This document shows positions 4,674 through 29,750 of a stretch of DNA of 32,000 nucleotides, piece after piece (positions within the stretch are counted from its first letter, which is position 1; the number at the start of each line of letters is the position of its first letter). The notes beneath the pieces were generated by a model. The model saw only the letters and a list, made by a program, of their open reading frames with translations, ran no database searches and was not told the DNA's origin. The translations under genes were made by a program, and so were the position numbers. Origin of the DNA: Clostridia bacterium (lineage in GTDB: Bacteria > Bacillota > Clostridia > UMGS1840). The stretch lies in the NCBI GenBank assembly GCA_045656345.1, contig JAZOQZ010000002.1, forward strand, positions 16,260 through 48,259. Reading direction: 5' to 3'.

Positions 4674-6740
4674 TTATTTTTCATAAAAAATTTGATTGGA
4701 AACAATTTCATAGGTCATTTGTGTTTTGCTGTAATGAATTCTTAAAAATTCGGTGGGCGTTTCCAGAAGACCTTCCGGTTCACACTGGTCGTATGCCACC
4801 GAAATTACCCGCACACCGTCTTTTAGGGATTTTAATTCTGTCTTTTCTCCACGATGCAGCACCAGGATGTTTTTTCCTTGATAAGCGGCTTCTGAAATCA
4901 TGGAGAAAAACAGATCTTCTTCTTGCTGTCTGGAAAAGGAAATCGGATCTTCCAGGCAGATGATGATGTTATTCTTTTCTGTCTTTAAGGTATCTGAAAA
5001 ACGATTCCATTCGGTCATTCTCTTATTTAAAATCTGCCCTTCTAGGTTGTCTAATGTCACGATTTCAATGTAGTCATTTTCAATTCGCTCACTTTGAAAC
5101 GGATACAGCGTCCGACCGGATTTTTTTAAGATATTGGAGGTGATCAGATGATCCCAGATGGTTTCGTATTTCACTCGTCCACCGTAAATATTCAAGGTTT
5201 CGGGAAGCCCCTGATTGTCAGCCATAGCATCCAAGACGGGAAGTTTATCCACCAAAGTAAGATTTTTGCCGTTTTTGTATTCTTTCTCGCTGACGGATTG
5301 TTTGTAGCCGTGGGAATTTGCAGCCAGATAGCTGCCATCTTTTTGTTTCTGCACATATTCGGCAGGAGTAACCACAGTGATTTCACAGGTTGCCGAAATT
5401 CCTTCATAGGTGATAATTACGGTTTCTTTTTCCACCGATTCACCATAGTAAAAACCGTTTTCCAACCGTCCCAGGCCGTTTTGTAAGGAAAACTTCACCT
5501 TTGCAGGATTTACCTCCATGGGATTCCCGTTTTCATCGTAGACGGTATAGTTGATTTTTTTGGGAATATTGCGGAAAACCACAGCATCTTCCGTGTGGAT
5601 TCCGTATGCTTTCGGAGATTCATTCTGTGTCAGGATCCCAACGCCGTTGGCAACCGAACGCTCATATCCGGAAGCCAGCGGATGGATATACTCAAGTTCT
5701 CCTGTTACATTGTTTTTCACAGCACACTGCGTGGAGCCGCCGCCGTCTAATGCCACGGCATAGTAGGCGCCCTGTGCTTTGCATAATTCCGCCATTCGTT
5801 TTAAGGTCAGATTATTCTGATTCACCACTGTAATCATCCACAGGGTTTTTCCGTCTTGGGAAATGCCGATGGCAGAGAAAGAGGAGGAGGTTTTGGGGTA
5901 GGACATCTGGTCCACGATTTCCCCTTCCTGCACCAGCAGAGAACCGCCACCCACAGTGAAATCAGGCAAAAATTCCAGCTCAGGTGTGGTGAGGATTTCC
6001 AGCGAAACTTCGTCTCCTACCTGCACCTGATCAAATAATGTGGTCAAATCGGATAATCCTGCCAGCACAAAACCGTTCTCGGGAATTTTAACAGGAGGCA
6101 TATCGCGACGGATTTCAGTTAAAATGTTATCTTCAATCACCAATTCCACCAGAGTGCCGTGAGAACCCAGGGATTCTTTTCCCCAGTGGCTGTCGTAAAT
6201 GGCAACACCCTCCAGGGAGGAATATTTATTGTAGGTTTTTACAAATTCAAACACTTCATCACGGAATCCGATTTTAATCTGATTGGAGAAAATATCAAAG
6301 GAATACTGATGGTCATCCTTGTAGGAGAAGGAATACACCTTCTCTTCCAGAGCGTTGGAGAGAAGTTCTCCGTCCTTCTGATTGTAACCCACTGCAGAAC
6401 CTTCGTTGGCTTTGTCGGAACGGTTGAAATAGTCTGCATTGATTACAACTGCCGCTTTGTTGTCTTCCCCGATGTTACGGGTTGGTTTTAAGGTTCCTGC
6501 CCCTTCGGAGGGATACAAAAGGTCTAAGGAAATATTGGGATTGGTCAAATCGCAGGTCACCACCTGATAGTTGAAAAATCCACCGTTTTCAATGGTGGAA
6601 ACTGTGGTTACCAAAACACCGTTAAGGGGACTGTATGTAGTTTCCTCGTGATAGTTGTCACCTGCAAATGCGCTCAGCGTAATGAGCTGTATCAATATCA
6701 GAATGAGAGCAATTGCTCTTGGAATCACAGAATGTTTCAA
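4674..6740 (-). CDS. secreted phosphodiester glycosidase family protein (DUF2233/NAGPA-like) with extra C-terminal domains
   Basis: Hallmark motifs VVINADYFN and AVALDGGGSTQ. I place the start at TTG 6740 (AAAGGAGA 9 nt upstream), giving the signal-peptide-like N-terminus LKHSVIPRAIALILILIQLITLSAFA. The ORF-track start at 6905 lies upstream of the predicted promoter. Confidence 0.8.
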   Translation of the reverse strand: MKHSVIPRAIALILILIQLITLSAFAGDNYHEETTYSPLNGVLVTTVSTIENGGFFNYQVVTCDLTNPNISLDLLYPSEGAGTLKPTRNIGEDNKAAVVINADYFNRSDKANEGSAVGYNQKDGELLSNALEEKVYSFSYKDDHQYSFDIFSNQIKIGFRDEVFEFVKTYNKYSSLEGVAIYDSHWGKESLGSHGTLVELVIEDNILTEIRRDMPPVKIPENGFVLAGLSDLTTLFDQVQVGDEVSLEILTTPELEFLPDFTVGGGSLLVQEGEIVDQMSYPKTSSSFSAIGISQDGKTLWMITVVNQNNLTLKRMAELCKAQGAYYAVALDGGGSTQCAVKNNVTGELEYIHPLASGYERSVANGVGILTQNESPKAYGIHTEDAVVFRNIPKKINYTVYDENGNPMEVNPAKVKFSLQNGLGRLENGFYYGESVEKETVIITYEGISATCEITVVTPAEYVQKQKDGSYLAANSHGYKQSVSEKEYKNGKNLTLVDKLPVLDAMADNQGLPETLNIYGGRVKYETIWDHLITSNILKKSGRTLYPFQSERIENDYIEIVTLDNLEGQILNKRMTEWNRFSDTLKTEKNNIIICLEDPISFSRQQEEDLFFSMISEAAYQGKNILVLHRGEKTELKSLKDGVRVISVAYDQCEPEGLLETPTEFLRIHYSKTQMTYEIVSNQIFYEK

Positions 6741-6852
6741 TAGAATTCGTCTCCTTTCGTTAGGCTTTTTCAATTGTTTCGACGAATTTGTGACAAAAAG
6801 GTTCGTTTTGTTTTGGATGAGGGAACCCCTATGGGAATCATCCGTTGGATTC

Positions 6853-6881
6853 ATTATAATATGGATTGCATACTTCGTCAA
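6853..6881 (-). promoter_or_regulatory. sigma-A-type promoter for the phosphodiester glycosidase gene
   Basis: Minus strand reads TTGACG, 17 nt, TATAAT. Confidence 0.6.
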
Positions 6882-6954
6882 TCTTTTTTTGGAAGATTGA
6901 GCCAAAAATCACAAGTTTTTCATAATTATTTTTTACAATATTTCCGAAAATAAC

Positions 6955-7043: not shown

Positions 7044-8096
7044 TTGAAACGTCTGATTGCTGTTCTGATGGCTGTTGTAATGTTGTTATTACAAAGCTCT
7101 GTTTGCTTTGCCAGAGAGGTTTCCACTTACGATGTGCTGTTAAATATGGATCCTGAGCTGATTGACCGTTTTTCAGAAGGCGGTTTGTCGGAAGAAATGA
7201 TCCGTTCCTTTATGGGCGTTTTGGATGACGAGGCAGACAAGCTCCAAAAGCCGGAAGACAGAGAAACTTTGGAAAACTATTTTCTTACCCTTTTGCTTTT
7301 GTATATTTTCCAGCAGGAAAAATATTTGCCTGTGATGGTTGCGTTTGATCAGGAGTTTCAGGAAGAAGTTGCTTATATTGCTGAAACGGGACGTGTACCT
7401 GAGAGTATGGAAATCTTCTTTTTATCCGTGATGGGGAACAACCTCGCATACGTTCCGCCGCAGGAGGAAGATTTTATTGATCCCGGACCCGAACTTACCG
7501 AGGAACCGGAACCCACACCCACTCCCACCCCGATTCCAACTCCTGAACCGCCCTTTTGGGATCTGGAAGGATACGATTGGGTAATTCCTTCGGTGGAGTA
7601 TTTAAAAAACGAGGGATATATCAGCGGTTATCCGGACGGCAGTTTCCGACCGGACCAACCTATCACCCGAGGGGAACTTTGTGTATTGGTAACGAAAGCG
7701 TTCTTAGATGAGGCCTACCGTTATGACACCAGCCGATATCCGGATGTTTGCCCATCTGATTGGTTTCATAAACAGCTATTGACGGCAGAATATTTTTCGT
7801 TATTCCAATGGATTTATGAAGATGAATTTTGTGCGGATGAGTATGTAACCCGACAGGAAATGTGTGCGGTGATTTACCGTGCTTACCGACGCAACGAAGC
7901 GGATCTTGCCCGGGTGAATCCCCGTTATGAATTTCTGGACTTTTCGCAGATTGCCAATTATGCTTATGACCCGATTCAACGGCTTCAGCAGGCAGGTTGC
8001 ATCAGCGGATATGAAAGCGGTGAATTTCTGCCGTTAAAACTTGCCACCCGTGCTGAAGTGGCAAGGGTGGTAGTCTCCGTGATACAACTCCGATAA
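7044..8096 (+). CDS. secreted SLH-domain cell-wall-anchored protein
   Basis: TTG start with AAGGAG upstream, then a signal peptide (MKRLIAVLMAVVMLLLQSSVCFA). A Pro/Thr/Glu linker (EPEPTPTPTPIPTPEPP) precedes three C-terminal SLH repeats (..YISGYPDGSFRPDQPITRGEL.. and ..CISGYESGEFLPLKLATRAEV..). Confidence 0.85.
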   Translation: MKRLIAVLMAVVMLLLQSSVCFAREVSTYDVLLNMDPELIDRFSEGGLSEEMIRSFMGVLDDEADKLQKPEDRETLENYFLTLLLLYIFQQEKYLPVMVAFDQEFQEEVAYIAETGRVPESMEIFFLSVMGNNLAYVPPQEEDFIDPGPELTEEPEPTPTPTPIPTPEPPFWDLEGYDWVIPSVEYLKNEGYISGYPDGSFRPDQPITRGELCVLVTKAFLDEAYRYDTSRYPDVCPSDWFHKQLLTAEYFSLFQWIYEDEFCADEYVTRQEMCAVIYRAYRRNEADLARVNPRYEFLDFSQIANYAYDPIQRLQQAGCISGYESGEFLPLKLATRAEVARVVVSVIQLR

Positions 8097-8133
8097 CAGT
8101 TTTTGAATTGTGTAGAAAGGGACGAATGTACAT

Positions 8134-9948
8134 ATGAGAAAAATTGCATTGATACTTTTGTTGATATATCTGACCATTTTGGGAGTATCCGCACAACCGG
8201 TAACTGCTCCTGAGGGAGAAGCTCAGCCTGTAGCAACCGCTACTCCTACAGCAGAACCGGCTCCTGAGGTGACAACTGCTCCTGAGGTGACAACTGATCC
8301 TGTAGCGACAACTGCTCCTGTGGTAGCAGCTGATCCTATCCCCACGCCCACTCCTTCGCCTACTCCCTTTGTAATTCCGGAGAGTGGTACCACGGTTCAT
8401 GTGTTATTTACTTCTGATATTCATGGTCATTTTCAAAGAAATCCTGCCAATGGAACGTTAGGTTATTCCGGGATTGCTGCTATTCAGCGTTCGCTCCCCG
8501 ACAGTATTCTGGTAGATGGTGGGGATTATTTGACCTCCAATATGTTTACGACGGAAGAAACCATCACCGGTGTGCTTTCTCTGATGAATGCCGCTGGCTA
8601 TCGTGTGGCAGGGATTGGGGAAGCCGACCTGGAAAATGGTGAGGAAGTTTTGCAGAAAGCGCAAACAGAAGCCGGTTTTTATATGTTGTCTTCTAACGTT
8701 ACTTACGGAAAGGACAGGTCCCCCTTATTAGGTAACACCGAAATTTGCGAAGTAAATGGCATCAAGGTTGGCTTTTTCAGTATTTTGAATCCCGATTTGC
8801 GATTGGATGCAAGTTTGCAAAATTTAGAGAACGTATATCTGGAAGATGCTGCCCGAACTGCACAAAAATGCGTGAATCAGTTAAAAGCAGAAGGTGCAGA
8901 TGTGATTATTGCACTGAGCCATATCGGGAATGAAGGAAATACCAACGTGGATCAGGTTGCTGCGTTCGTAAACGGAATTGATTTTATTTTAGACGGTCAT
9001 GACCATCAAGAAGAAGGCGGCAGATGGATTGGGGAAACCCTCATCTTAAATCCCGGCGCAGACGGCAAACAGTTGATTCAGCTGACTTTAAATTATGATA
9101 GGTACAGAAAATTGACCGGTTTTTCCACAACTCAGTGGAGTTACGAGGGGGTTGCAAACCTGCCGATGGACGAAACTGTTGTGGCGTTGGAAAACGAAAT
9201 TGCCCAGAGACAGTCTGAATTTCTGGGGTCTGATGTTGCTGTAGCAGAGCATGCAATTCCATATTCCTTCTCTATGATGTATCAGTCGGAAGCATTAGGG
9301 AATTTTGTTGCAGACGCCTACCGCGCAAAAACACAGGCCACCGTTGCCATCGTAAATGCAGGTAGTATTGAATCCGGGATTCCTCAAGGGGAAATTAGCA
9401 AAGCAACCATTTTAGCGGTGCTTCCCAACCAGTATTCCGTGCAGGTGAAAAAAGTGACTCCAAAGATGTTGAAAACTGCTTTGGAAGGATGCTTGTATAA
9501 TATTAAGGTGCGAGAAGACGGCACCATTGATCCGGCCACTGCCACCGCAGAATTTCCGCAGGTTTCCGGATTTACCGCACAAGTTAACTTTAACAATGAA
9601 CCCGGAAAAAGGGTTATGGGAATTCAGTTGGACAACGGTATTGAATTGAATCTGACCGACACTTATACTCAAATTTCACTGGCATCTTCCAGTGGGGTGT
9701 TCTCCGGTGAATTCGGTTACGATATTTTCCTGGATCGGGAAGTAGAAGAGGATTACGGTTCAGAAGGACAAGCGCTTTTAGAACATTTAAGCCGTACTCA
9801 GAATCCGGAGGAGTATCAGGCTCCCCGTATCACAATAACCAATCAACAGGAAAGTTATACCGGGCTTATTATCAGTATTCTTTTGGTAATTGTTTTGGTA
9901 GTTATGGTGTTGATTGTCATTATAAAAATGATGACCAGGGACTCCTGA
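8134..9948 (+). CDS. cell-surface 5'-nucleotidase/metallophosphoesterase family protein (UshA/CpdB-like) with C-terminal membrane anchor
   Basis: Signal peptide and PT-rich repeat linker. Metallophosphatase motifs DIHGH, GGDY, SHIGNEG and GHDH are present, followed by a 5'-nucleotidase C-terminal-type region and a terminal TM helix (LIISILLVIVLVVMVLIVII). The GNHE motif position reads GIGEAD (see findings). Confidence 0.85.
   Translation: MRKIALILLLIYLTILGVSAQPVTAPEGEAQPVATATPTAEPAPEVTTAPEVTTDPVATTAPVVAADPIPTPTPSPTPFVIPESGTTVHVLFTSDIHGHFQRNPANGTLGYSGIAAIQRSLPDSILVDGGDYLTSNMFTTEETITGVLSLMNAAGYRVAGIGEADLENGEEVLQKAQTEAGFYMLSSNVTYGKDRSPLLGNTEICEVNGIKVGFFSILNPDLRLDASLQNLENVYLEDAARTAQKCVNQLKAEGADVIIALSHIGNEGNTNVDQVAAFVNGIDFILDGHDHQEEGGRWIGETLILNPGADGKQLIQLTLNYDRYRKLTGFSTTQWSYEGVANLPMDETVVALENEIAQRQSEFLGSDVAVAEHAIPYSFSMMYQSEALGNFVADAYRAKTQATVAIVNAGSIESGIPQGEISKATILAVLPNQYSVQVKKVTPKMLKTALEGCLYNIKVREDGTIDPATATAEFPQVSGFTAQVNFNNEPGKRVMGIQLDNGIELNLTDTYTQISLASSSGVFSGEFGYDIFLDREVEEDYGSEGQALLEHLSRTQNPEEYQAPRITITNQQESYTGLIISILLVIVLVVMVLIVIIKMMTRDS
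8260..8331 (+). repeat. 18-bp in-frame tandem repeat, 4 units (2 identical, 2 diverged), encoding APEVTT-type linker units
   Basis: GCTCCTGAGGTGACAACT appears twice, followed by GATCCTGTAGCGACAACT and GCTCCTGTGGTAGCAGCT. Confidence 0.9.
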
Positions 9949-10591: not shown

Positions 10592-11314
10592 TTGGAAAAA
10601 AACAAGGAAATTACATCAAAAATCAATGAGAATTTCACGATTTTCCAACGGGAAGATTCATTTAAATTCGGCACGGATGCAGTGCTGCTGTCCCGCTTTG
10701 CCAGGATGGGAAAAAAAGATGTGCTTTTTGATATCTGCTCCGGAACTGGAGCAGTGGGATTTTTTTGTCACCTGAACTTTCACCCCAAAGAAATCCATTT
10801 TGTGGAAATCGATCCGACAATGACGGAATTATCCCGAAAAACTGCCGCCTATAACGGAATCTCAGAAAAATGTCGTTTTTATTGTAGCGATATTGCTGAT
10901 TTTCCGATACAAGACACAATGATGGCAGATGCCATCACGGTGAATCCGCCCTATTTCTTTGAAAATAGCGGAAGGGTAAACAAAAATGATAATCTGAAAA
11001 CTGCCCGTCATACAGAGCAGTTTTCCCATGACATTTTATTTGAAAAGGCCTACCGTCTTCTTCGGGATGGTGGCAAAATTTTTTTAATTCAGCGGGCACA
11101 GAATTTAGCGGAGATTCTTGCGAACTTAAAAGAACACCGCTTAGAGCCGAAACGCCTTCGTTTGGTATATGGAAATCCTAAGAAGGATGCCAACCTGTTT
11201 TTGGTGGAAGCCGTAAAAAACAGCGGTGTCTGGATGGATTGCCAACCACCCTTATTTCTCTATGACGAAAACGGTGAAATGACCGAAGAATTTCGTCGGA
11301 TGCAGGAGTTTTAA
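10592..11314 (+). CDS. SAM-dependent N6-adenine methyltransferase, tRNA1(Val) m6A37 methyltransferase (YfiC/YabB)-like
   Basis: TTG start after AAGGAGAG. SAM motif I DICSGTGAVG and catalytic NPPY (ITVNPPYF). It sits directly upstream of rsmI, as yabB does in Bacillus. Confidence 0.8.
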   Translation: MEKNKEITSKINENFTIFQREDSFKFGTDAVLLSRFARMGKKDVLFDICSGTGAVGFFCHLNFHPKEIHFVEIDPTMTELSRKTAAYNGISEKCRFYCSDIADFPIQDTMMADAITVNPPYFFENSGRVNKNDNLKTARHTEQFSHDILFEKAYRLLRDGGKIFLIQRAQNLAEILANLKEHRLEPKRLRLVYGNPKKDANLFLVEAVKNSGVWMDCQPPLFLYDENGEMTEEFRRMQEF

Positions 11315-11316
11315 CT

Positions 11317-12144
11317 ATGTTGGGAACTTTATATCTTGTTGCCACCCCTATCGGAAATATGGGAGATTTATCTCCCCGTGCCAAAGAAATTTTAGCATCA
11401 GCAGATTTGATTGCTGCAGAGGATACCCGTGTGACCGGTGCTTTGCTGAAAAAACTTGGCATTGAGAAAAAACTGGTCAGTTATTATGAGCATAACGCAG
11501 CCATGCGAAGCTCTCTGTTAATCCGTCATTTGGAAGACGGAGACACTGTGGCGCTGGTTTCTGATGCCGGAACCCCGGCTATTTCAGACCCGGGGGAAGC
11601 CATTGTGGAGGAGTGTATCCGCCGTGGAATTGATGTGTATCCCATTCCCGGTCCTTGTGCATTTGTCTGTGCATTGACGGTGTCTGGGTTTTCCACCGCG
11701 CAGTTTAGCTTTATCGGTTTCTTGCCATCCAAACCAAACGACCGTAAAAAGGAATTGGAAACCGTAAAGCATCGGGAAGAAACCCTGGTTTTTTATGAAG
11801 CACCCCATCGCCTTCTGAAAACACTGTCCGATATGAAAGCGGTATTCGGGGAAGAGCGCAGAGTGTGTGTTTCTCGTGAAATCACCAAAAAATTTGAAGA
11901 ACATATCCGTGGAACGTTGACGGAAGTTCTGAGTCATTTTGAAAGCAATCCTGTAAAAGGAGAATTCGTGATTGTGGCAGAAGGCGGCATCAAGGAGGAA
12001 AGCAGCCTCAATCAGTTGTCTTTGGAAGAACATCTGGAATTTTATCTGAAAAAAGGGATTTCTCAGAAAGATGCCATCAAACAGATCGCTCAGGACAGAA
12101 ACCTGCCCAAGCGGGAAGTGTATGCCCATTTTCATAAAGACTAA
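11317..12144 (+). CDS. rsmI: 16S rRNA (cytidine1402-2'-O)-methyltransferase
   Basis: N-terminus LYLVATPIGNMGDLSPRA..AEDTR and SDAGTPAISDPG, typical of RsmI. 275 aa. Confidence 0.93.
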   Translation: MLGTLYLVATPIGNMGDLSPRAKEILASADLIAAEDTRVTGALLKKLGIEKKLVSYYEHNAAMRSSLLIRHLEDGDTVALVSDAGTPAISDPGEAIVEECIRRGIDVYPIPGPCAFVCALTVSGFSTAQFSFIGFLPSKPNDRKKELETVKHREETLVFYEAPHRLLKTLSDMKAVFGEERRVCVSREITKKFEEHIRGTLTEVLSHFESNPVKGEFVIVAEGGIKEESSLNQLSLEEHLEFYLKKGISQKDAIKQIAQDRNLPKREVYAHFHKD

Positions 12145-15190: not shown

Positions 15191-18037
15191 ATGAAACTGT
15201 CTAAAGTTTTATCCTTAGTATTAGCAGTTGTTATGCTGTTCGGCATGCAGACTTTCGCATTCACCGACGTTGCAGCTACTGCTAACTACGCAGAAGCTGT
15301 TCAGGTTCTGTCCGCTTTAGAAATCATCAATGGTTATGAAGACGGCACTTTCAAACCTGAAGGCAAAATCACTAGAGCAGAATATGCTGCAATCGTTTGC
15401 AGAATTCTGGACATGGGCGATGCAGGCGCTAACCAGGTTGGCGGCTACTTCACCGACGTTGAAGCTGACCACTGGGCATCCGGTTACATTGCAACCGCTT
15501 CTCAGTTAGGTATCGTTAACGGTATGGGCGATGGTACTTTCGCTCCTTCCGCAGAAGTTACCTACGAACAGGCTGTTGCTATGTTAGTTCGTGCACTGGG
15601 TTATGAAAGAAAAGCTCAGTCTATGGGCGGTTACCCCACCGGTTACATGATGATTGCTAACCAGGAATCCATCACCGTTGGTACTGCTAACACCGCTGGC
15701 GGCGCTTCCAGAGCAACCGTTGCAAGATTAACTTACAACTCTCTGACCGTTCCCATGATGGACCAGACTTCTTGGGGTTCTGATGAAAAATTCGAACCCA
15801 TCGCTACTCAGTCTTTACTGTGGACCAAACTGAACGCAATCAAAGCTGAAGTTACTTTCAACAACATCCCCTTAAACAAAACTGAAACTGATGCTACCGT
15901 TACTATCGCTCCTACCAAAATGGATCAGGTTGCTCAGGCTAACTACAACAAAGCTCCTTTCGCAATTCCCTCCAGCGTTAAAATCAATGATGTTGATTTA
16001 ACCGGTTTACAGGGCTTAGTTGCTACCGCTATCATCGACAAAGCTGATGATGCTGAATGGAAACTGGTTACCGTTGTTGCTAAAGCTGGCAAAAACGTTG
16101 AAATCGAAGTTGATCCTGCATTATTACAGGAAACCGTTTACACCGATGGTTCCATCGAATACAAAAAAACCGCTGATGACGACAGAAACAGCAAAATCAA
16201 AGTTCCTACCGGCGGCTTAACTGTTTACAAAAACTTAGTTTACGGTGCTTGGTCCGACGTTGATGCTTTAGGTGCTGACGCAACTGACGTTGCTTACAGA
16301 TTTGTTGATACCGATAACAACGGCGAATACGAAACCGTATTTATTGACAACGTGGGCGTATTTATGGTTGGTTCTGTAAATACCAAAAACTTCAAAATCC
16401 AGAGAGAAACCACCAATGCTAACGCTCAGGCTACCTACACTTCCAGCATCGTTTTAGATCCTGAAGTTGAAACCACTGCTTGGTCCTTAACCGACGCTGA
16501 AGGTAATGCTTTAGAATTAGCAGACATCAAAGCAGGTGACGTTTTAGCTGTTGCAGTATCCTTTGACAGCCCCGACACCTACTATGAAATCGTTGTTACC
16601 AACAACACTATCGAAGGCACTGTAACTCAGTCTTACACTGAAAATGGTGACACCTACTACACCATCGGCGATGCTGATTACACCATGCTGACCACCGGTA
16701 CCTTAAATCCCGGTGATGCTATCACTGCTACCGTATATGGCGACAAAATCGTTTGCTACGATGTAGCTGAAGGCGTTAAAAACTACGGTGTTGTTATCGC
16801 TAACAACGTTGCTTCTGACTTCGGTACCACTTACCAGGCTCAGATCTTAACCATGGCTGGTGAAATCGTTACCTTAGACTTAGCTGACAAAGTAAACGGT
16901 GCAGATTACACCGGTACTAACTTCGCTACTGACTTCGCTAAAGACAACATCATTGCTTACAACTTAAACAATGCTGGCGAAATCAAAGCTTTCGAAGTAG
17001 CTGACAAAGATGTTACCGTTGGTACCATCGTTGGTGACTTTACTCCTGCTGCTACCACCGTATCCGGTGATGACAAAGCAGTTTATGCTACTGGTAAATC
17101 CTACTACGATACTCGTGAAAAATTAGACAACTTATACATCACTGACGATACTGTTGTTGTAATCACTGAAAATGCTTACGGTGCTAACAACAAAGCTGAT
17201 TACGCTGTTTCTTCCAAAGCTATCTTTGATGAAACCGAAACCTATGATTTCTTCGCAGTATACAATGATGCAAAAGAAGCTAAATTCGTTGTTCTGTATC
17301 AGGAAATGAACAATGTTAACATGAGCGGCTATCCCCTGGTTGTAACCAAAGTTTCTACTGTAACCGTTGATAACGACTACAGAACCAAATTAGTTGGTTA
17401 CATCGATGGCGAAGAAGTTGAATTAGTAACTGCTGAAGGCGTAAGCAGAACCTTATTAGCTGCTAACGATATCGCTATGATCGCTACCAATGCTGACGGC
17501 GAAATCACCGCTGCTACTATCTTAGCTAAATACGTTGACAGTGTTGGTTACAAAGTTGTTGACAACTCTGCTAACGCTGCAGCTGATGACAAATTAAGCA
17601 AAGCTGGTACCGAACAGACCATCGCGTTTGCTCCTACCTTCAACACTGCTAACCTGGACACCTTCTTCAGTGCTGGTGCTACCGATGCAGAAACCTTAAA
17701 AGGTTTTGGTATCGCTGGTAAAGTATTTGAAATCAAAGGTAAAACTCTGAACTTAGTTCAGGCAGATGATTACGCTCTGACCTTATCCGGTACCGATAGA
17801 TTCTACGGTGCTAACGATGCGTACATCACTGACTTCACCTTCAATCCTGCTGCTAACGCTTACATCTACAATGTAAGAACCGGCAAAATCACCGTTGATA
17901 CCATCGGCGATGTAGATACTGAAAAGAGCACCAACGACTACCAGGATGCTACTCAGTTATTCAACGATGACGCTGTATACGTATACAACTACGACGGCGA
18001 AACCAAATTAATCTTAGTTATCGACATTAACGGTTAA
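15191..18037 (+). CDS. S-layer protein (N-terminal SLH repeats plus a large Thr/Ala/Val/Asp-rich surface domain)
   Basis: Strong AGGAGG RBS and signal peptide (..MLFGMQTFA). SLH repeats FTDVAATANYAEAVQVLSALEIINGYEDGTFKPEGKITRAEY and FTDVEADHWASGYIATASQLGIVNGMGDGTF. Codon choice is strongly biased (GCT/GTT/ACC/TTA), consistent with very high expression. Confidence 0.9.
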   Translation: MKLSKVLSLVLAVVMLFGMQTFAFTDVAATANYAEAVQVLSALEIINGYEDGTFKPEGKITRAEYAAIVCRILDMGDAGANQVGGYFTDVEADHWASGYIATASQLGIVNGMGDGTFAPSAEVTYEQAVAMLVRALGYERKAQSMGGYPTGYMMIANQESITVGTANTAGGASRATVARLTYNSLTVPMMDQTSWGSDEKFEPIATQSLLWTKLNAIKAEVTFNNIPLNKTETDATVTIAPTKMDQVAQANYNKAPFAIPSSVKINDVDLTGLQGLVATAIIDKADDAEWKLVTVVAKAGKNVEIEVDPALLQETVYTDGSIEYKKTADDDRNSKIKVPTGGLTVYKNLVYGAWSDVDALGADATDVAYRFVDTDNNGEYETVFIDNVGVFMVGSVNTKNFKIQRETTNANAQATYTSSIVLDPEVETTAWSLTDAEGNALELADIKAGDVLAVAVSFDSPDTYYEIVVTNNTIEGTVTQSYTENGDTYYTIGDADYTMLTTGTLNPGDAITATVYGDKIVCYDVAEGVKNYGVVIANNVASDFGTTYQAQILTMAGEIVTLDLADKVNGADYTGTNFATDFAKDNIIAYNLNNAGEIKAFEVADKDVTVGTIVGDFTPAATTVSGDDKAVYATGKSYYDTREKLDNLYITDDTVVVITENAYGANNKADYAVSSKAIFDETETYDFFAVYNDAKEAKFVVLYQEMNNVNMSGYPLVVTKVSTVTVDNDYRTKLVGYIDGEEVELVTAEGVSRTLLAANDIAMIATNADGEITAATILAKYVDSVGYKVVDNSANAAADDKLSKAGTEQTIAFAPTFNTANLDTFFSAGATDAETLKGFGIAGKVFEIKGKTLNLVQADDYALTLSGTDRFYGANDAYITDFTFNPAANAYIYNVRTGKITVDTIGDVDTEKSTNDYQDATQLFNDDAVYVYNYDGETKLILVIDING

Positions 18038-19274: not shown

Positions 19275-19733
19275 ATGTCAGACACGAAAAAAACCAATTG
19301 GCTCATTGCGATTATCACAGCGGTAACGGCAATTTTAGGTGGTTTCTTTTCTATGAATTCATCAGAATTCTATGACACCTTAGTTCGACCTCCTCTGGCA
19401 CCGCCGTCCATTGCGTTTCCTATTGTGTGGGGAATTTTGTATGTGGCAATGGCGATTTCTTTAATGCTGTTTTTCCGCAAAAATCCTGACGACACTGTTG
19501 CATTATTGCTTTATGTGGGAAATTTGGTGTTAAATGCCCTTTGGCCCCTCTTTTTCTTCACACTTCAAAATGTTGGATTAGCGCTGATTGTTCTGATTGT
19601 CATGATTTTTGTGAATCTGATCTTGTTAGGACGGCTCAGAACTGTGAAATGGGCATTTTATTTGTATCTGCCCTATCTGTTATGGCAGTTATTTGCCCTG
19701 TATCTGAATATTGCCATTTGTTTATTGAATTAA
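19275..19733 (+). CDS. tspO: TspO/MBR family tryptophan-rich sensory protein
   Basis: 152 aa with five TM segments. Motif FYDTLVRPPLAPPSIAFPIVWGILYVAMAIS and a Trp-rich C-terminal half. Confidence 0.85.
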   Translation: MSDTKKTNWLIAIITAVTAILGGFFSMNSSEFYDTLVRPPLAPPSIAFPIVWGILYVAMAISLMLFFRKNPDDTVALLLYVGNLVLNALWPLFFFTLQNVGLALIVLIVMIFVNLILLGRLRTVKWAFYLYLPYLLWQLFALYLNIAICLLN

Positions 19734-21008: not shown

Positions 21009-21020
21009 GAGGTGGTTTTT

Positions 21021-22193
21021 GTGGTGCGTGTCTATCGGTTTCTAAAAGGGTATCAGTGTTATCGGGCAACCGGAATACATCTGGAGAAATTTTTGAATCT
21101 GTGTCTTTCGCATAAGCTGTACCTTTGGGATATTTGCCGAACTGACAGAAACACAGTGTTGTTTTCAGTGAGTAATCGGGGAGCACGGTTACTGAAAGAA
21201 TTTGCCGAAAAAACAGGAACTACCCTGGCAGTGCAGGAGGGAAGAGGATTGCCCACCGTTTTAAAATCACTGAAAAAAAGAACGGTTTTCCTGGTTGCTT
21301 CCGCCTGCTTTCTTGTGGGCATTTTTGTGTCTTCTTCTTTTATCTGGACAGTCACATTCGATGTTTCTGCCGGAATAGACACGGGAAAAATCAGAGACTT
21401 TCTGTCTGAAAACGGATTGGGTGTTGGAAAAATCCGAAAAACGGTGGATACCACCCATCTTTCCAATCAGATTATTAATCGTTTTCCTGAGGTGCTTTGG
21501 GCGAATGTGGAACTTTCGGGGACAAATCTTTTAGTCACACTGATTCCCAGAACAGATTCTCCCGAGATTATTCCCAAGGATACCCCCACCAATATTGTGG
21601 CAAAAAAAGACGGTTACATTAAGGAAATCGTTGCCCAAAACGGAGAAGCACTGGTCAAAGCAGGCGACACAGTGCTAAAAGATCAGATTTTAATTTCGGG
21701 CTTGATTCCAAGTCCCGCAGTGGGGACACGGTATATTCATTCTTTGGGCAACATCCGCGCAATTACCTGGGAGGAAAAAACTTTTGAAAAAAAGTTGTAT
21801 CAATATGAAAAAATTCCCACAGGGAAAGAAATAATCCGTCGTGAATTACAACTTCCGTTTTTAAAAATTCCATTGTATTTTGGGCAAAGTATTGACTTTT
21901 ATAATTATGATAGTATAATAAAAGATAGACATTTCCTGTTTATCACCTATCGGGAAACCGTTTTTTCGGAATACACCTTGCAAAAGGTGGAAAGAAGTGA
22001 AGAAGAAGCAATCAAAGAGGCCACAGACGAGTTTTTAAAAGGCCTTTCCGAACAGGGGATAGAGGATATTGTTTCGCTAAAAACAGAGTCAGCAAGGCTA
22101 TCAGAAGATTGCATTTCTGTGACGGTGTTTGCAGAATGTGAGGAAGAGCTGGGGGTATCCCGAGTGATTGAAAAGCCGGTTGACGTGCAATAA
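21021..22193 (+). CDS. yqfD: sporulation protein YqfD
   Basis: N-terminus ..YRFLKGYQCYRATGIHLEKFLNLC.., one central TM segment, about 390 aa. Conserved yqfC-yqfD-phoH order. The start is ambiguous among GTG 21012, 21021 and 21024 after AGGAGG at 21007-21012. Confidence 0.8.
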   Translation: MVRVYRFLKGYQCYRATGIHLEKFLNLCLSHKLYLWDICRTDRNTVLFSVSNRGARLLKEFAEKTGTTLAVQEGRGLPTVLKSLKKRTVFLVASACFLVGIFVSSSFIWTVTFDVSAGIDTGKIRDFLSENGLGVGKIRKTVDTTHLSNQIINRFPEVLWANVELSGTNLLVTLIPRTDSPEIIPKDTPTNIVAKKDGYIKEIVAQNGEALVKAGDTVLKDQILISGLIPSPAVGTRYIHSLGNIRAITWEEKTFEKKLYQYEKIPTGKEIIRRELQLPFLKIPLYFGQSIDFYNYDSIIKDRHFLFITYRETVFSEYTLQKVERSEEEAIKEATDEFLKGLSEQGIEDIVSLKTESARLSEDCISVTVFAECEEELGVSRVIEKPVDVQ

Positions 22194-25100: not shown

Positions 25101-25142
25101 CTTCGCTAAAAACTTGCCGCAGGCAACTTTTTTAAACGCTCG

Positions 25143-25228
25143 TTGCCTTCTTAAGGTTCAAGTCCTGTATGAAAAAAAGAGCCATCCATTTTATGGATGA
25201 CTCTTTTATTTGGTCGAGGTGACAGGAC
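25143..25228. repeat. 86-bp perfect direct repeat, copy 2 (overlaps the 3' end of the intact tRNA-Pro)
   Basis: Identical to 24941-25026. Confidence 0.95.
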
Positions 25229-25287
25229 TTGAACCTGCGGCATCTTGGTCCCAAACCAAGCACTCTACCAAACTGAGCTACACCTCG
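25211..25287 (-). tRNA. tRNA-Pro (anticodon UGG), CCA encoded
   Basis: Minus strand reads CGAGGTG-TAGCTCAGTTTGGTAGAGTG-CTTGG-TTTGGGA-CCAAG-ATGCC-GCAGGTTCAAGTCCTGT-CACCTCG-A-CCA. It forms a clean cloverleaf with a 7-bp acceptor stem and a GTTCAAGTC T-loop. Confidence 0.93.
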
Positions 25288-25300
25288 AAAGCCAAAAGCT

Positions 25301-25329
25301 ATTATACAATACTTTTGGCTTCTTGTCAA
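25301..25329 (-). promoter_or_regulatory. consensus sigma-A promoter for tRNA-Pro
   Basis: Minus strand reads TTGACA, 17 nt, TATAAT, ending about 13 nt before the mature tRNA 5' end. The -10 lies in the loop of the hairpin AGCCAAAAG..CTTTTGGCT (25290-25320). Confidence 0.7.
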
Positions 25330-25359: not shown

Positions 25360-26154
25360 TCAGTTTCCAAAAGCAGCGTTATATCCTCCGATGTCAGCCC
25401 CTAATTCACAGGTGTAAAGCCATTCGATTTGATCGCCGTCTTTTAACTGATATCGTGAACATCCGTAATTGGGGAACCAACCGTTTACCCGATACATCCA
25501 TCCTGAAAGTTCTCCGCAGTCAAACTCGTAAAGGTTTGCAATGCCTTCGATATAGGAACTGTTATATAGTGGTGTGTGTTCAAATTCCATGTGAATCCCA
25601 TTTTGTCTTGCTTCACGAAGGAGCACATCAAACACGCTTTCTCCGTCATAGAAGACGACTGTCCGTTCTGCATAGATAACTCCGTCTTCCGGCACCAGCT
25701 CCACCTTCTGTGGTTCTAACCATTCCATATGCTGAAGAATACTGTCACAACGAACAGACAGTGTGCAGGTCAGCACTTGGTCGGATACAACAACATCCTG
25801 GGGTTCCACGGGGACGGGTTTTCCTTCGGGAACAGGGTCGGTAAGATATTTGTCTTTTCCGGTTTCCTCATCAATTACCATACCGTTTTTGACAGAGGTA
25901 ACTTCATTTTCTTGCGTAGTGTCCGAGACGGATTCCTGTTCCAAAGTAAGTTTCTCTGCTTTGATTGCGGATGAATCATCATTGGGTTGCTCTGACGGGG
26001 CAGGGGTAGGAGCATCGGTTGCAACAGATACAGTCTTCTGAGGCTTTGGATTCCAACCGCGAAGTCCCGGTGAATTACCGCCGTACCAAAAGGAAAAGGC
26101 AAGGATTGCTGAGATGAGTATAGCAAATATGATTTTTGTTTTGTGCTTTTTCAA
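25360..26154 (-). CDS. membrane-anchored DUF4430 (transcobalamin-like beta-domain) protein
   Basis: TTG start after AAAGGA and an N-terminal TM anchor (IIFAILISAILAFSFWY). A linker containing KDKYLTDPVPEGKPVPVEPQ precedes the C-terminal domain ending ..FDCGELSGWMYRVNGWFPNYGCSRYQLKDGDQIEWLYTCELGADIG. Confidence 0.8.
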   Translation of the reverse strand: MKKHKTKIIFAILISAILAFSFWYGGNSPGLRGWNPKPQKTVSVATDAPTPAPSEQPNDDSSAIKAEKLTLEQESVSDTTQENEVTSVKNGMVIDEETGKDKYLTDPVPEGKPVPVEPQDVVVSDQVLTCTLSVRCDSILQHMEWLEPQKVELVPEDGVIYAERTVVFYDGESVFDVLLREARQNGIHMEFEHTPLYNSSYIEGIANLYEFDCGELSGWMYRVNGWFPNYGCSRYQLKDGDQIEWLYTCELGADIGGYNAAFGN

Positions 26155-26172
26155 TCCGGTTCACATCCTTTT

Positions 26173-28188
26173 TTACTGCATTTGCAGAAAACGCATGATA
26201 ATCGTTGCCACCTGAGCACGAGTTGCAGTATCTTTGGGAGATAAGGTGGCGTGATTGGTACCATTCAGTAAAGAGACAGCGTTTGCCCACCGGATGGCAT
26301 CCAGTGCCCAGTCGCTCACATCGTTTTTATCTGCGTATATTTCAAGATCGGAACTACCTGAAACATCCATTCCTTGCATCTTTGCGTAACGCTGGAGCAT
26401 CAGAGCCATTTGTTCACGGGTAACCTCTTGATTGGGCATAAATTCTGTTTCGTTTACACCGTTTACGATATTGTTTGTAACTGCCCAGGCCACTGCATCA
26501 GCGTACCAGCTATCTTCCGATACATCTGAAAAATTGTGAATCGCTTCTGTTTTTTCGGAGGAGTGCATTCTGTAAAGGGTTGTCACAAGCATGGCTCTTG
26601 TCATCTTCGTGTTTGGTTCAAAGCCATTGTCGGTGCCTTGCATCAGATTGTTTTCATACACATATTTTACGGATTCGTAATACCAGTCATTTTTTTGAAC
26701 ATCTGCGAAAGTAGTATCAGTCATTTCAAAGACTTCTGTGTTTTCAGATGTTGTTTGTTCTGTTTCGGGCTGTTCTGTCTCCTGTTGTGTCAGATTATTT
26801 TCTGTGGAGAGGGAATCTTCTGCTTCGGGTTCCTGGTAATCTTCCTCGTAAACGGAATTTTCGGGTTCTTCTTCTATGATGGCATTGTCCCAATCTTCAG
26901 GCTCTTCATCTGCTATTACATCGTCCCAAATTTCCGGTTCATCTTCTACGATATCATCATCGTCGGTTTCTTCTTGGTTTTCATCTTGCAGCATAGTGAC
27001 ATCCGTCATATCGTAAAGAGTGGTTTTTCCTTCCAGAAAACGGATATAGGAAACCAATGCGTACTCGCCTTGTTCTGTTGCCATACCATTTAAGCCACTA
27101 CTCGGAAGATGCTCAAAACCACCACCGTCAACAGCAAACATACATAGCGCATCTACAACGGAAATCCCGTTTTTGATGAAGCGTTCCTCTGTTTCGGGGT
27201 CAATTCCGAGTGTGGTCAATGCAACAATCACCTGAGCACAGGACTCGCTGCAAATACCGTCGATGGAACCAAAAGCTCCATTTTCATATTGAACTTCAGA
27301 AAGGTAACTCAGCGCAGTTTCCACGGCTTCTGCAACCTGGGGATTGGTATCGCAATAGGGAGCAAGTGCCGTAATCGCCATCCCTGTCATATCAGGGTCG
27401 GAGGTCTGTCCATAAATGGACCAGCCACCGTCAGGAAGTTGTTTTTCCAGAATATAGGAGATGATATCTTCTCTGGTTGCCTGAGTGTCTTCGTTGGAGT
27501 TTTGGGGAATTTCATAACCATAACTATCTAAGGCGATAAGAGCCCAGATGGGACCGTTCACCCCTTGTCTTTTTAAGTAACTCATATCGGAAAGTCCGCA
27601 AAGCAGATTATGTCCATCCACATTGGTCACATCATATCCTAATGAGGTAAGTGCAAGAATTACCCTGGAATTTTCCGTGGATTTCGCTCTGTGAAGCTGC
27701 CCTTTGTCATTGATATTTTCATTCACAAAGTTCACCACGTTTTCGTAGTATCCCTCCGGACATTCCCTGCCGGAACGGGTAAGGGCAATTACCATCCATT
27801 CTCCGCCAACAGAACCCACATTGGGGATTCCAAGCTGAGAAATATACTCGGCAGTTGCTTCGTAAACAGACAGATAATCGATGTTGGCTAATTCTTCATA
27901 CAACACTGCGATGACTGCTTCCGCATCGGTTAAACTATCAATATTTTCAACCAATTCTTTGTGAGAATCGGGTAATTCTTCGTATGCATCCCGAGCATCT
28001 TTGATTTTATTTCCTGCGTGGATGGTAACCTCGCCGATGGCATCAATTTTTTCCATCACCGCATTGATACTATTATAATCTATTTCTTCGGTGACAATAT
28101 CATTTTCCACAACTTCCTCTGATGCCAGAACGGGAACTGCATAAAACAGCATTGCCAAAAGAAGCAGAACACTAACAATTTTCTTCAT
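26173..28188 (-). CDS. secreted alpha/alpha-toroid (prenyltransferase/terpene-cyclase-like repeat) protein with acidic linker and three C-terminal SLH domains
   Basis: Signal peptide with AGGAAAGGA RBS. Repeat motifs GGEWMVIALTRSG, NGPIWALIALDS, DGGWSIYGQTSDPDMTGMAITAL, NGAFGS and DGGGFEH. Acidic EPE-x-WD repeats, then SLH repeats (FADVQKNDWYYESVKYV.., FSDVSEDSWYADAVAWA.., ..VSDWALDAIRWA..). Confidence 0.75.
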   Translation of the reverse strand: MKKIVSVLLLLAMLFYAVPVLASEEVVENDIVTEEIDYNSINAVMEKIDAIGEVTIHAGNKIKDARDAYEELPDSHKELVENIDSLTDAEAVIAVLYEELANIDYLSVYEATAEYISQLGIPNVGSVGGEWMVIALTRSGRECPEGYYENVVNFVNENINDKGQLHRAKSTENSRVILALTSLGYDVTNVDGHNLLCGLSDMSYLKRQGVNGPIWALIALDSYGYEIPQNSNEDTQATREDIISYILEKQLPDGGWSIYGQTSDPDMTGMAITALAPYCDTNPQVAEAVETALSYLSEVQYENGAFGSIDGICSESCAQVIVALTTLGIDPETEERFIKNGISVVDALCMFAVDGGGFEHLPSSGLNGMATEQGEYALVSYIRFLEGKTTLYDMTDVTMLQDENQEETDDDDIVEDEPEIWDDVIADEEPEDWDNAIIEEEPENSVYEEDYQEPEAEDSLSTENNLTQQETEQPETEQTTSENTEVFEMTDTTFADVQKNDWYYESVKYVYENNLMQGTDNGFEPNTKMTRAMLVTTLYRMHSSEKTEAIHNFSDVSEDSWYADAVAWAVTNNIVNGVNETEFMPNQEVTREQMALMLQRYAKMQGMDVSGSSDLEIYADKNDVSDWALDAIRWANAVSLLNGTNHATLSPKDTATRAQVATIIMRFLQMQ

Positions 28189-28212
28189 GAGATTGGTTCC
28201 TTTCCTGATTTA

Positions 28213-29274
28213 TCAATTTACAATATATGCTTCACAAAGGGGCATACAGGTTGTAAAGCCATCCCACAACATAATCTTATCATTGGAAGAAAGTGTGATA
28301 TCGGAATCAATGGGAACAATCATCACATTTTCACCGCTTGTTTTTTTGGTGGTCAGGGGAATTGGTTTTATAAGGTTTAATTGATCGTTTTCATAATCTG
28401 CCAAAATTAAGGTAATATTGGCACCTTCTTCGGGGAATGTGATATACACAAAATCTCCGTCATAGCCTGTGATTTCAAAATCTGAAACCGTGGCGGTGAA
28501 AAAAGTATCTTCAATGTAGCTGGTGAGGATTGTTTCCTGTTCTGTCAGTTCCGAAGCACTTGCCAAAGGATTGGCAGCTACCGAAAGTGCAGTTTCATAC
28601 ACATCGTCGGTATCAAGATTTCCATAATAATCATTGATTGCAGCCAAGAGGAAAATCAGGTCAGATTTATCTTCCTGAATAAATAAATTTCCACCCATCC
28701 ATTCTGCCATCGCATTGTTAGCAAATCCACAATCACAGCCATAACCTTTGACGGTAAAATGCCATCGAATCACATCGCCGAGAATCACCGTTTCGCCGGA
28801 GTTGTAATCAACAATTGCATCCCCCGGATATGCATCCGATGCCCCCCAGGATGCCCACCAGTCATTCATGGTATAGCACCAACCGGACATCCAGCTATAA
28901 TCGAATTCCTCCAAATAACCGTTTCCGTCTCCTAAACCGTCAAATTCCCAGATGTAGTCTTCCAGATATTCGGGATATTGGGGTTCAATAGTATCGTCAA
29001 ATTCAAATCCGCTGAAATAAGAGGTGTCCCCCGTATAACCAATGTTCTTTTTGGTAAGAACCTCTACTGTAATATCGCCAACTGATTTTCCTTCTTTGGC
29101 ATATAAAGACGGTTCTACCAGAAAACCCTGACCGAGATTATACGCTTCCACGGTGATAGCACCATAGTTTTCTCTCAGATCGTCTAAAGTCATTGTGTTG
29201 GCAAATGTTGCAAGAGGGGAACAGGTAATCAGCATTACCAAAAGAATCAGAATACTTATAAATTTGTTGTTCAT
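28213..29274 (-). CDS. secreted protein with an N-terminal DUF4430-like domain plus C-terminal domain(s) of unknown function
   Basis: AAGGAGA RBS and signal peptide (ISILILLVMLITCSPLATFA). ..ITVEAYNLGQGFLVEPSLYAKEGKSVGDITVEVL.. through ..SGWCYTMNDWWASWGASDAYPGDAIVDYNSGETVILGDVIRWHFT.. follows the DUF4430 pattern. Confidence 0.7.
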   Translation of the reverse strand: MNNKFISILILLVMLITCSPLATFANTMTLDDLRENYGAITVEAYNLGQGFLVEPSLYAKEGKSVGDITVEVLTKKNIGYTGDTSYFSGFEFDDTIEPQYPEYLEDYIWEFDGLGDGNGYLEEFDYSWMSGWCYTMNDWWASWGASDAYPGDAIVDYNSGETVILGDVIRWHFTVKGYGCDCGFANNAMAEWMGGNLFIQEDKSDLIFLLAAINDYYGNLDTDDVYETALSVAANPLASASELTEQETILTSYIEDTFFTATVSDFEITGYDGDFVYITFPEEGANITLILADYENDQLNLIKPIPLTTKKTSGENVMIVPIDSDITLSSNDKIMLWDGFTTCMPLCEAYIVN

Positions 29275-29367
29275 TTGAAATTCTCCTTTTTATTATTTAT
29301 GGGAAATAGCGTCTTGGTAACATCACGTTTTATTTCTGAATACGCCTCCTTGTTTTTACCGCAGATA

Positions 29368-29408
29368 ATAAAAAAACTGCGGCAATTTTGAATTCAAAAT
29401 TGCCACAG
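29368..29408 (-). terminator. intrinsic terminator in the leader (riboswitch expression platform)
   Basis: Minus strand has CTGTGGCAATTTT-GAATTC-AAAATTGCCGCAG (13-bp stem with one G-U pair) followed by TTTTTTT. It lies about 95 nt upstream of ATG 29274. Confidence 0.8.
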
Positions 29409-29507
29409 CAGAGTGTTTCTGTGAACTTCATATTTTGTTTTTCTCAAAAAAGAAAAACAAAACTATTATTCCTGTGCAAATCCTCCAGGCACATTGACGG
29501 AACAACA

Positions 29508-29700
29508 TCAAAGCAGGTCTTCTGACTCATATCTCATAACGTTCATTCTTTAGTCTTCTCAGTTTCCCAATGACCGGCTTTCGCCCTGTGCCGAATTCGG
29601 CAGAATGAACTGGATACATACAGCGACTGGTATCGTCCGGGATTCGCACCCGGTTCCCTTTTCATCTGCAGTGCCAAACGGCAGGGCAGACACTTTGTAT
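29508..29700 (-). promoter_or_regulatory. cobalamin (B12) riboswitch aptamer
   Basis: Minus strand has the conserved core AAAAGGGAACCGGGTGCGAATCCCGGACGATACCAGTCGCTGTA, ..TTGGGAAAC.. and the B12 box AGTCAGAAGACCTGC (29513-29527). Boundaries are approximate. Confidence 0.85.
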
Positions 29701-29721
29701 GAATTATTTTGTTGTATCAAA

Positions 29722-29750
29722 AGCATAGCATAGATATTCTTTGTTGTCAA
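29722..29750 (-). promoter_or_regulatory. sigma-A promoter driving the riboswitch operon
   Basis: Minus strand reads TTGACA, 17 nt, TATGCT, immediately upstream of the aptamer. Confidence 0.6.

Follow-up and report, generated by a model that had tools for sequence, protein, structure and literature searches.

A three-gene operon on the minus strand of the DNA analysed here, a 32,000-nucleotide (nt) stretch of a Clostridia bacterium genome (assembly GCA_045656345.1, contig JAZOQZ010000002.1, positions 16,260 to 48,259 of the forward strand; hereafter the window, in whose own numbering its features are given), is in our judgement probably a B12-repressed, extracytoplasmic corrinoid-capture module that belongs to an SLH-bearing Gram-positive envelope and feeds an importer. 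The operon lies behind a cobalamin riboswitch and encodes a secreted protein (P1), a wall-anchored alpha/alpha-toroid protein (P2) and a membrane-anchored DUF4430 protein (P3). This function, which an earlier inspection of the letters without database searches (the sequence-only reading) had put forward as a transcobalamin split over separate polypeptides, is supported at the sequence level by comparative genomics, through the riboswitch (50–52 of 60 related loci), the energy-coupling factor (ECF) transporter context (53 of 69 loci), the domain content of the proteins and the existence of DUF4430-toroid fusions.

The three open reading frames (ORFs), encoding 353, 671 and 264 amino acids, lie within 25360–29750 with intergenic gaps of 24 and 18 nt, packed as tightly as had been claimed. 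A consensus scan located the sigma-70-type (sigma-A-type) promoter previously read there, TTGACA-17-TATGCT with an extended −10 TG, at 29722–29750 (minus strand; 10/12 match); its position, ~10 nt 5′ of the aptamer, fits a transcription start near 29715, and its function is predicted. The suspected cobalamin riboswitch was recovered by Infernal at 29495–29712 (minus strand; RF00174, 76.4 bits, E = 2.3e-17, gathering score 31.5), the match spanning model positions 1–189 of 189, and homologous aptamers precede the same cassette in the related loci L002, L003, L004–L007, L013 and L057. Downstream of the aptamer we found a small AT-rich expression-platform hairpin, TTTTGTTTTTC/GAAAAACAAAA, at 29433–29462 (minus strand; minimum free energy (MFE) fold and conservation), whose stem is preserved via multiple compensatory changes in L013, L002, L057, L004 and L003. 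It is followed by the strong intrinsic terminator of the sequence-only reading at 29366–29409 (minus strand; terminator scan, MFE fold z = −4.6), which has a 15-bp stem with 6 GC pairs and a T7 tail and is kept in five relatives, with a compensatory change in the leader alignment from GGCAATTTT/AAATTGCC to GGTAATTTT/AAATTACC. The retention of both leader hairpins through compensatory substitutions indicates that the expression platform is under selection, and termination at the second hairpin would be ligand dependent, giving an OFF switch.

We then surveyed related loci. At least 562 relatives came from a scan limited to one genome for each species; of these, 80 loci were kept, all from gut or rumen Clostridia (Oscillospiraceae, Acutalibacteraceae, Lachnospiraceae, Faecousia, Christensenellaceae and others). 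A covariance model built from three aptamers was run on all loci, and the toroid, P1, P3 and ECF genes were mapped with purpose-built hidden Markov models; riboswitch counts refer to the 60 loci whose upstream sequence spans 700 nt or more, and ECF counts to the 69 loci with informative downstream sequence. A same-strand cobalamin riboswitch was present in 50 of the 60 loci, with 2 further weak matches. The strict criterion was passed by 45; map reading revealed matches that it had missed, owing to the called ORF start or to distance, in L023, L050 and L048, and Rfam riboswitch matches lie 2.3 kb upstream of the cassette, with one gene intervening, in L033 and L038. Weak covariance-model matches that were re-tested exceeded the Rfam gathering score in every case (7/7). 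Serial aptamers were seen 5′ of some cassettes: L075 (1507–3765) carries three, ~1 kb apart, and L054, L070 and L076 likewise carry two or three.

The same survey addressed co-occurrence with transporter genes, which had been proposed as a check. ECF components adjoin the cassette in 53 of the 69 loci; in 41 of these 53, EcfT, EcfAA′ and an S component follow the cassette on its own strand. The typical operon runs from the riboswitch through the toroid protein (often with DUF4430 embedded) and the membrane DUF4430 protein to EcfT and EcfAA′; S is either fused or encoded by a gene of its own, and a second EcfT is frequent. In L003–L007, whose P2 proteins are 63–73% identical to that of the window, the same P1-P2-P3 cassette runs directly into EcfT and an EcfA-A′-S fusion. 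One S component was tested, that of L003, and its S domain matched CbrT of PDB 6FNP with E = 5e-8. The toroid family as a whole is large (>3700 matches).

P2 (671 amino acids; 26173–28188, minus strand), the product of the second gene, has a signal peptide, a helical N-domain (residues 38–101), an alpha/alpha toroid (~105–395; 27004–27876), an acidic linker of ~90 residues (~400–490) and three SLH repeats (491–671; 26176–26718). The repeats matched PF00395 in three stretches (E = 1.4e-29) and the SLH structures of the S-layer protein Sap (3pyw, 6bt4; E = 1.9e-14), and the AlphaFold2 (AF2) model of the N-terminal 440 residues (predicted local distance difference test (pLDDT) 88.6, predicted template-modelling score (pTM) 0.82) showed the helical N-domain followed by the toroid, so that both the toroid and the three SLH anchors proposed earlier were confirmed. 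A Foldseek search of this model against the PDB gave 39 matches at E ≤ 1e-3, all of them toroids, headed by prenyltransferase beta subunits (E = 7e-6, TMt up to 0.61) and then class II cyclases. Transcobalamin entered from rank 34 (2v3n, E = 6e-4, TM 0.43/0.46), together with 8ixu and 7qbg; the structural kinship sought by this comparison is thus present, and is not specific to transcobalamin. The modelled fold is what an alpha domain of transcobalamin type would require, yet sequence and structure alike mark it as a generic toroid of the prenyltransferase/terpene-cyclase kind.

This ranking bears on whether P2 is instead an extracellular enzyme of the terpenoid cyclase/prenyltransferase superfamily acting on an envelope lipid or isoprenoid, with the DUF4430 proteins as accessories, an explanation we consider extremely improbable. 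Its best sequence and fold matches are indeed prenyltransferase beta subunits and class II cyclases, and residues 264–268 (D264-P-D266-M-T268), invariant in the family, stand where class II cyclases have DxDDTA; DPDMT resembles a degenerate form of this catalytic (DxDD) motif, with the third Asp changed to Met. That substitution argues against an enzyme, as do the single toroid of P2 in place of a beta-gamma didomain, the extracellular display of the family, where SLH, dockerin or LPXTG anchors keep it apart from isoprenoid diphosphates, its co-regulation and shared operons with B12 transport rather than lipid genes, and its fusion to SLBB ligand-binding domains. Residues 369–373 form a second conserved motif, M-A-T-E-Q, which resembles the CGEQ thioester motif of complement/alpha-2-macroglobulin without its Cys. 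A thioester was excluded on account of this missing Cys; no structure of an alpha-2-macroglobulin/complement thioester domain (TED) occurred in the top 50 Foldseek matches of P2, and TED_complement gave weak matches in only 2 of 45 toroid-family members. The two folds that the sequence-only reading had named as incompatible with its proposal, a cyclase with catalytic motifs and a thioester domain, were not encountered. Both DPDMT and MATEQ may have been inherited from the common toroid superfamily and taken over for contacts with the ligand.

P3 (264 amino acids; 25360–26154, minus strand), encoded by the third gene, begins with a transmembrane helix (~7–23), continues with a Pro/Glu-rich linker and ends in a DUF4430 domain (171–248; 25411–25644). 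The canonical, membrane-anchored DUF4430 architecture assigned to it earlier was confirmed by PF14478 at 66.9 bits (cut-off 23.8; E = 2.3e-18; profile positions 1–71 of 72), a family also found at the C-terminus of TCN proteins (PMC4350170, PMC1796856). Structural comparison was less direct: a plain sequence search of P3 against the PDB gave nothing relevant and a profile of close P3 homologues missed transcobalamin; a profile of diverse isolated DUF4430 domains run against the whole PDB placed the transcobalamin beta domain (5no0_A) second, over the full domain, at a non-significant E = 1.7. The P3 family is very large (>8000 matches). Its members share an invariant juxtamembrane motif, W-Y-G-G-x2-P-G-L-R-G-W (residues 22–34), directly after the transmembrane helix, and five invariant or nearly invariant cysteines (Cys130/136/213/232/249). 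A partner in the membrane could dock at this motif, which is missing in the P3 homologue of Latilactobacillus curvatus.

P1 (353 amino acids; 28213–29274, minus strand), the product of the first gene, is preceded by a GGAG ribosome-binding site within 29281–29290 and comprises a signal peptide, an SLBB/DUF4430-like beta-grasp domain (~37–175), a helical domain (177–259) and an Ig/FN3-like beta-sandwich (266–337). The protein had been described as secreted and DUF4430-like; its secretion stands, and its DUF4430 core was recovered only by BLASTP against P3 (E = 3e-6) and by hhalign, where residues 117–185 align with the corresponding core in the P3 family (96.7%, E = 3e-10, 55 columns). It gave no Pfam match at E ≤ 0.1, no NCBIfam match and no PF14478 score above the cut-off, and thus, of the two PF14478 domains expected in the operon, that of P3 lies above threshold and that of P1 is visible at the profile–profile level. 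A distant homologue of P1, P0064, bears PF14478. In the AF2 model (pLDDT 83.6), a beta-beta-alpha unit is followed by a beta-hairpin, and this order agrees with that of the transcobalamin-like SLBB clade, for which it is diagnostic (PMC1796856). A plain sequence search of P1 against the PDB gave nothing relevant, and the whole-model Foldseek search was dominated by FN3/monobody matches to the C-terminal sandwich. The P1 family is small and clade-specific (64 matches). A lipoprotein signal (LITC) was considered and rejected, as its Cys is not conserved in the family consensus, and neither domain search nor the AF2 model revealed a recognisable anchor.

Gene fusions connect the two kinds of domain. 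DUF4430 and toroid occur in a single polypeptide in P0180, P0132, P0160 and P0184 and in 27 surveyed loci, ordered beta then alpha, the reverse of transcobalamin. In P0061, a single partial metagenomic ORF, a segment 70% identical to P1 residues 144–261 stands in frame with a P2-type toroid (49% identical), in a domain order that agrees with the P1-P2 gene order, and this sequence lends modest support to a link between P1 and P2. Anchors vary around a constant toroid core, including SLH, dockerin (with an operon-encoded cohesin), LPXTG and cadherin-like types, which fits a surface-displayed binding module. Some family members are nevertheless giant multi-domain surface proteins, and one might ask whether the operon encodes B12-regulated surface or adhesion proteins with no corrinoid role, for example for surface remodelling under B12 scarcity. 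The fused member L001, which lies in a mobile element and has no riboswitch, and the two members with weak TED_complement matches would suit such a role; the Cys-less MATEQ, which excludes a thioester, and the pervasive linkage to the riboswitch and to ECF genes (with a CbrT-like S in the tested L003) make it very unlikely.

The L001 gene (8001–9644) is one of several DUF4430-toroid fusions, with L059, L064, L080, L074 and L079, that have neither cobalamin riboswitch nor ECF genes; its mobile element also carries Toprim/DUF3991, PcfM, an SNF2 helicase and a toxin-antitoxin pair. This riboswitch-less and ECF-less branch may have a different role. A further variant is L084 (7264–17731), where an 89-bit cobalamin riboswitch precedes, in order, genes for a P1-like protein, a protein with a dockerin in the toroid position (assigned by position, not by a toroid match), a cohesin protein and a DUF4430 protein, and then ECF genes; such a gene set would amount to a B12-capture module tethered by dockerin and cohesin. 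In L084 (7787–7975, HNH_repeat match) and L033 (7693–8004), the riboswitch is separated from the first secreted protein by a small ORF that has no equivalent in the window. L033 also encodes, at 7979–9913, between riboswitch and toroid gene, a different secreted protein of 644 amino acids in the P1 position, with several repeats read as beta-rich and a DUF4430-like GW...DGD motif seen by eye only; a similarly sized gap occupies this position in L038 and L048. A first secreted SLBB-like protein may thus be a recurring slot of these operons.

Taken together, these observations suggest the following model for corrinoid capture. At low intracellular cobamide, the unliganded riboswitch would permit read-through of the leader terminator and P1, P2 and P3 would be produced; when cobamide is ample, ligand binding would favour the terminator and turn the operon off. 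P2 would hold its toroid on the cell wall through the three SLH repeats and the acidic spacer of ~90 residues, while P1, secreted, and P3, on a membrane helix and flexible linker, would each contribute one transcobalamin-type beta-grasp SLBB/DUF4430 domain. A toroid and an SLBB domain would sandwich one corrinoid, as in transcobalamin, with P1 pairing with the P2 toroid in the wall zone and P3 taking the ligand at the membrane and handing it to an ECF-type B12 importer with a CbrT S component. The importer is encoded directly downstream in sister lineages; in the window genome and its nearest relatives it is not in cis and would have to lie elsewhere. Riboswitch, terminator, domain content, homology, fusions and operon context were all observed directly; the ligand identity, the SLBB-toroid pairing, the direction of hand-over and the OFF logic are the steps that we infer. 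An unlikely variant is that P1 acts as a freely released, hemophore-like 'corrinophore' that collects cobamides at a distance from the cell and whose Ig-like domain docks on the P2 toroid in a transient, transcobalamin-like holo-complex from which P3 strips the ligand, forming a three-tier Gram-positive relay that in this lineage is uncoupled from the ECF importer and uses a shared or different transporter, or serves as a B12-piracy device.

In the window, L002 and L057, no ECF genes occur within 8–9 kb downstream of the cassette, and 16 of the 69 informative loci are likewise ECF-less; the L013 contig ends 269 nt past the cassette and is hence uninformative. The position where relatives have ECF genes is occupied in the window by a tRNA-Pro(UGG) gene (25211–25287, minus strand; Rfam 67.8 bits, ARAGORN) with its own promoter (TTGACA-17-TATAAT, 12/12 match, 25301–25329, minus strand), a unit (25211–25329) that begins 31 nt past the P3 stop codon, at which the cassette ends. 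The terminator scan found no minus-strand terminator between P3 and the tRNA gene, the next one being at 25114–25126, so that transcription under riboswitch control may continue into the tRNA gene. As an alternative to import, the three proteins could serve surface sequestration or storage of corrinoids, depriving competitors or sharing with others, with no dedicated importer. This would account for the loss of ECF genes from the operon in the window lineage and would suit a P1 that has no recognisable anchor, but B12 repression is the logic of an acquisition system, and P3 retains its membrane tether and invariant juxtamembrane motif, suggesting a persisting membrane partner; we regard sequestration as improbable.

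Several results weigh against corrinoid capture followed by import. Corrinoid binding has been shown for no member of this bacterial family, either in the literature found or here, and the literature retrieved on DUF4430, CbrU/CbrV, CbrS and the combination of cobalamin riboswitch with squalene/prenyltransferase contained no experimental B12-binding study. The P2 toroid, as modelled, resembles prenyltransferase beta subunits at least as much as transcobalamin. Pfam Cobalamin_bind (PF01122) did not match P2 at E ≤ 0.1 and is missing from the 25 families with the most matches in a set of 45 toroid-family members; of the prenyltransferase-like or cobalamin-binding domain match expected for P2, the prenyltransferase/cyclase type was therefore obtained, in sub-threshold Prenyltrans and SQHop_cyclase matches, and the cobalamin-binding type was not. 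The whole-model Foldseek search of P1 against the PDB gave nothing significant, with intrinsic factor 2pmv_A at E = 0.27. Approximately 8 to 10 of the 60 loci have no riboswitch, mostly those with giant toroid proteins, along with some on mobile elements. No transporter is encoded in the operon or by any other gene of the window, nor is a B12-dependent enzyme or isozyme, which agrees with what the sequence-only reading had stated for the operon. Finally, the only genetically studied homologous system, lsa1836–1840 of Latilactobacillus sakei, is assigned to heme uptake.

Deletion of lsa1836–1840 impaired heme uptake in L. sakei (Verplaetse et al., 10.1101/864751), and the cassette could accordingly capture heme or another non-corrin tetrapyrrole, as proposed for Lsa1840/Lsa1839 of that ECF-like system. 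The connection runs through a L. curvatus locus (L085, CP117684.1 114052–119694), whose ECF operon encodes an LPXTG-toroid protein and a DUF4430 protein; the former is a homologue of P2 (27% identity along the entire toroid, E = 1e-22), and the DUF4430 domain of the latter is homologous to that of P3 (49% identity, E = 1e-27). Its gene order equals that of the published lsa1840–1836 operon, and from this order and the gene sizes in the published description we infer orthology. A heme role for the window operon appears quite improbable all the same: the operon and 50–52 of 60 relatives stand behind a cobalamin riboswitch, whereas the L. curvatus locus has none; the co-operonic S component tested (L003) matches CbrT, whose transport hemin does not inhibit; and the assignment of alpha- and beta-like proteins in L. 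sakei came from docking, not binding data. The L. sakei/L. curvatus system is alike in having separate secreted alpha-like (toroid) and beta-like (DUF4430) proteins, a 'split transcobalamin', and differs in its EcfT, EcfAA′ and S genes in cis, its LPXTG anchor, the lack of a P1-type third protein, the lack of a cobalamin riboswitch (in L. curvatus) and a heme role based on a deletion phenotype.

Other genes of the window give some context. Two more SLH proteins (350 and 948 amino acids) and an NAGPA phosphodiester glycosidase protein are encoded at 4674–6905 (minus strand), 7044–8096 (plus strand) and 15191–18037 (plus strand); these proteins imply that the envelope of this organism bears SLH-anchored wall proteins. 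YqfD at 21012–22193 indicates a spore former. A gene for a membrane protein of the TspO/MBR family, which is tetrapyrrole-binding, lies 5.6 kb from the operon (19275–19733, plus strand; E = 1.3e-34), and we found no link between the two. A TP_methylase-family gene (11317–12144, within 10592–12144, plus strand; E = 3.6e-34) sits beside a small methyltransferase gene; a part in B12 biosynthesis was rejected for it, as its size and this neighbour suggest that it is probably an RsmI-like rRNA methylase.

Cobamide competition is far less understood among Gram-positive gut anaerobes than for the BtuG/BtuB systems of Bacteroides, and Clostridia of gut and rumen carry the toroid/DUF4430 family in great abundance. 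The version in the window is compact and suited to biochemistry: it consists of three proteins, a short one with the toroid and two others that each carry an SLBB domain. It raises the questions of whether bacterial toroid and SLBB pairs bind corrinoids as transcobalamin does, and whether they are ancestral to the animal B12 carriers, as proposed in 2007 (PMC1796856). For systems of the L. curvatus/L. sakei type, the missing riboswitch set against the homology to P2 and P3 raises the question of whether cobalamin, heme or both are the ligand.

Among known systems, transcobalamin encloses one cobalamin jointly between its alpha/alpha toroid and its beta-grasp SLBB domain (PMC1796856). Transcobalamin, intrinsic factor and haptocorrin are alike in the toroid, matched by the P2 model, and in PF14478, matched by P3; they are single polypeptides with alpha before beta, whereas the window has the domains on separate proteins and the bacterial fusions place beta before alpha. 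P2 also differs in giving no Cobalamin_bind match and in a likeness to transcobalamin no higher than that to prenyltransferases. The ECF-CbrT transporter is a dedicated cobalamin/cobinamide (Cbl/Cbi) transporter that is not inhibited by hemin, and the reconstituted L. delbrueckii transporter consisted of the ECF module and CbrT alone (Santos et al. 2018, PMC5997447). Relative to this transporter (6FNP), sister loci place the cassette with EcfT, EcfAA′ and S, the S of L003 being CbrT-like, whereas the window has no ECF component. In Bacteroides, the beta-propeller BtuG and other lipoproteins feed the TonB-dependent BtuB in a Gram-negative outer membrane. Two sources on these bacteria (PMC13616437, PMC12751083) describe multiprotein extracellular cobamide relays, encoded in uptake operons, that feed a membrane transporter; the analogy to the window is functional only, since protein families and envelope differ.

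The closest precedent is the computational work of Burroughs et al. 2007 (PMC1796856), which described a transcobalamin-like SLBB clade in low-GC Gram-positives, secreted or wall-anchored with signal peptides, fused to toroids in either order or encoded next to them, found in operons with a second paralogous SLBB protein and linked to CbiO/CbiQ-like genes, and which predicted these toroid and SLBB surface proteins to be B12 scavengers. That the same functional prediction was reached independently supports the corrinoid-capture interpretation. The systems agree in the secreted SLBB (= DUF4430) domain, the toroid partner, the second SLBB paralogue and the CbiO/CbiQ-type (ECF) linkage, the last seen in relatives of the window; the window differs in its SLH anchor, in a P1 too divergent for Pfam and in having no ECF genes in the operon. 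The word 'riboswitch' appears nowhere in the text of that purely computational study, and the riboswitch link is quantified here. The earlier suggestion that this architecture had not been characterised or recognised in Firmicutes is wrong, given the 2007 prediction (PMC1796856) and the study of the homologous L. sakei operon (10.1101/864751). The concept is not new; what sets the present system apart is that riboswitch control is pervasive, the anchor is of the SLH type, P1 is divergent and the operon has no ECF genes in cis.

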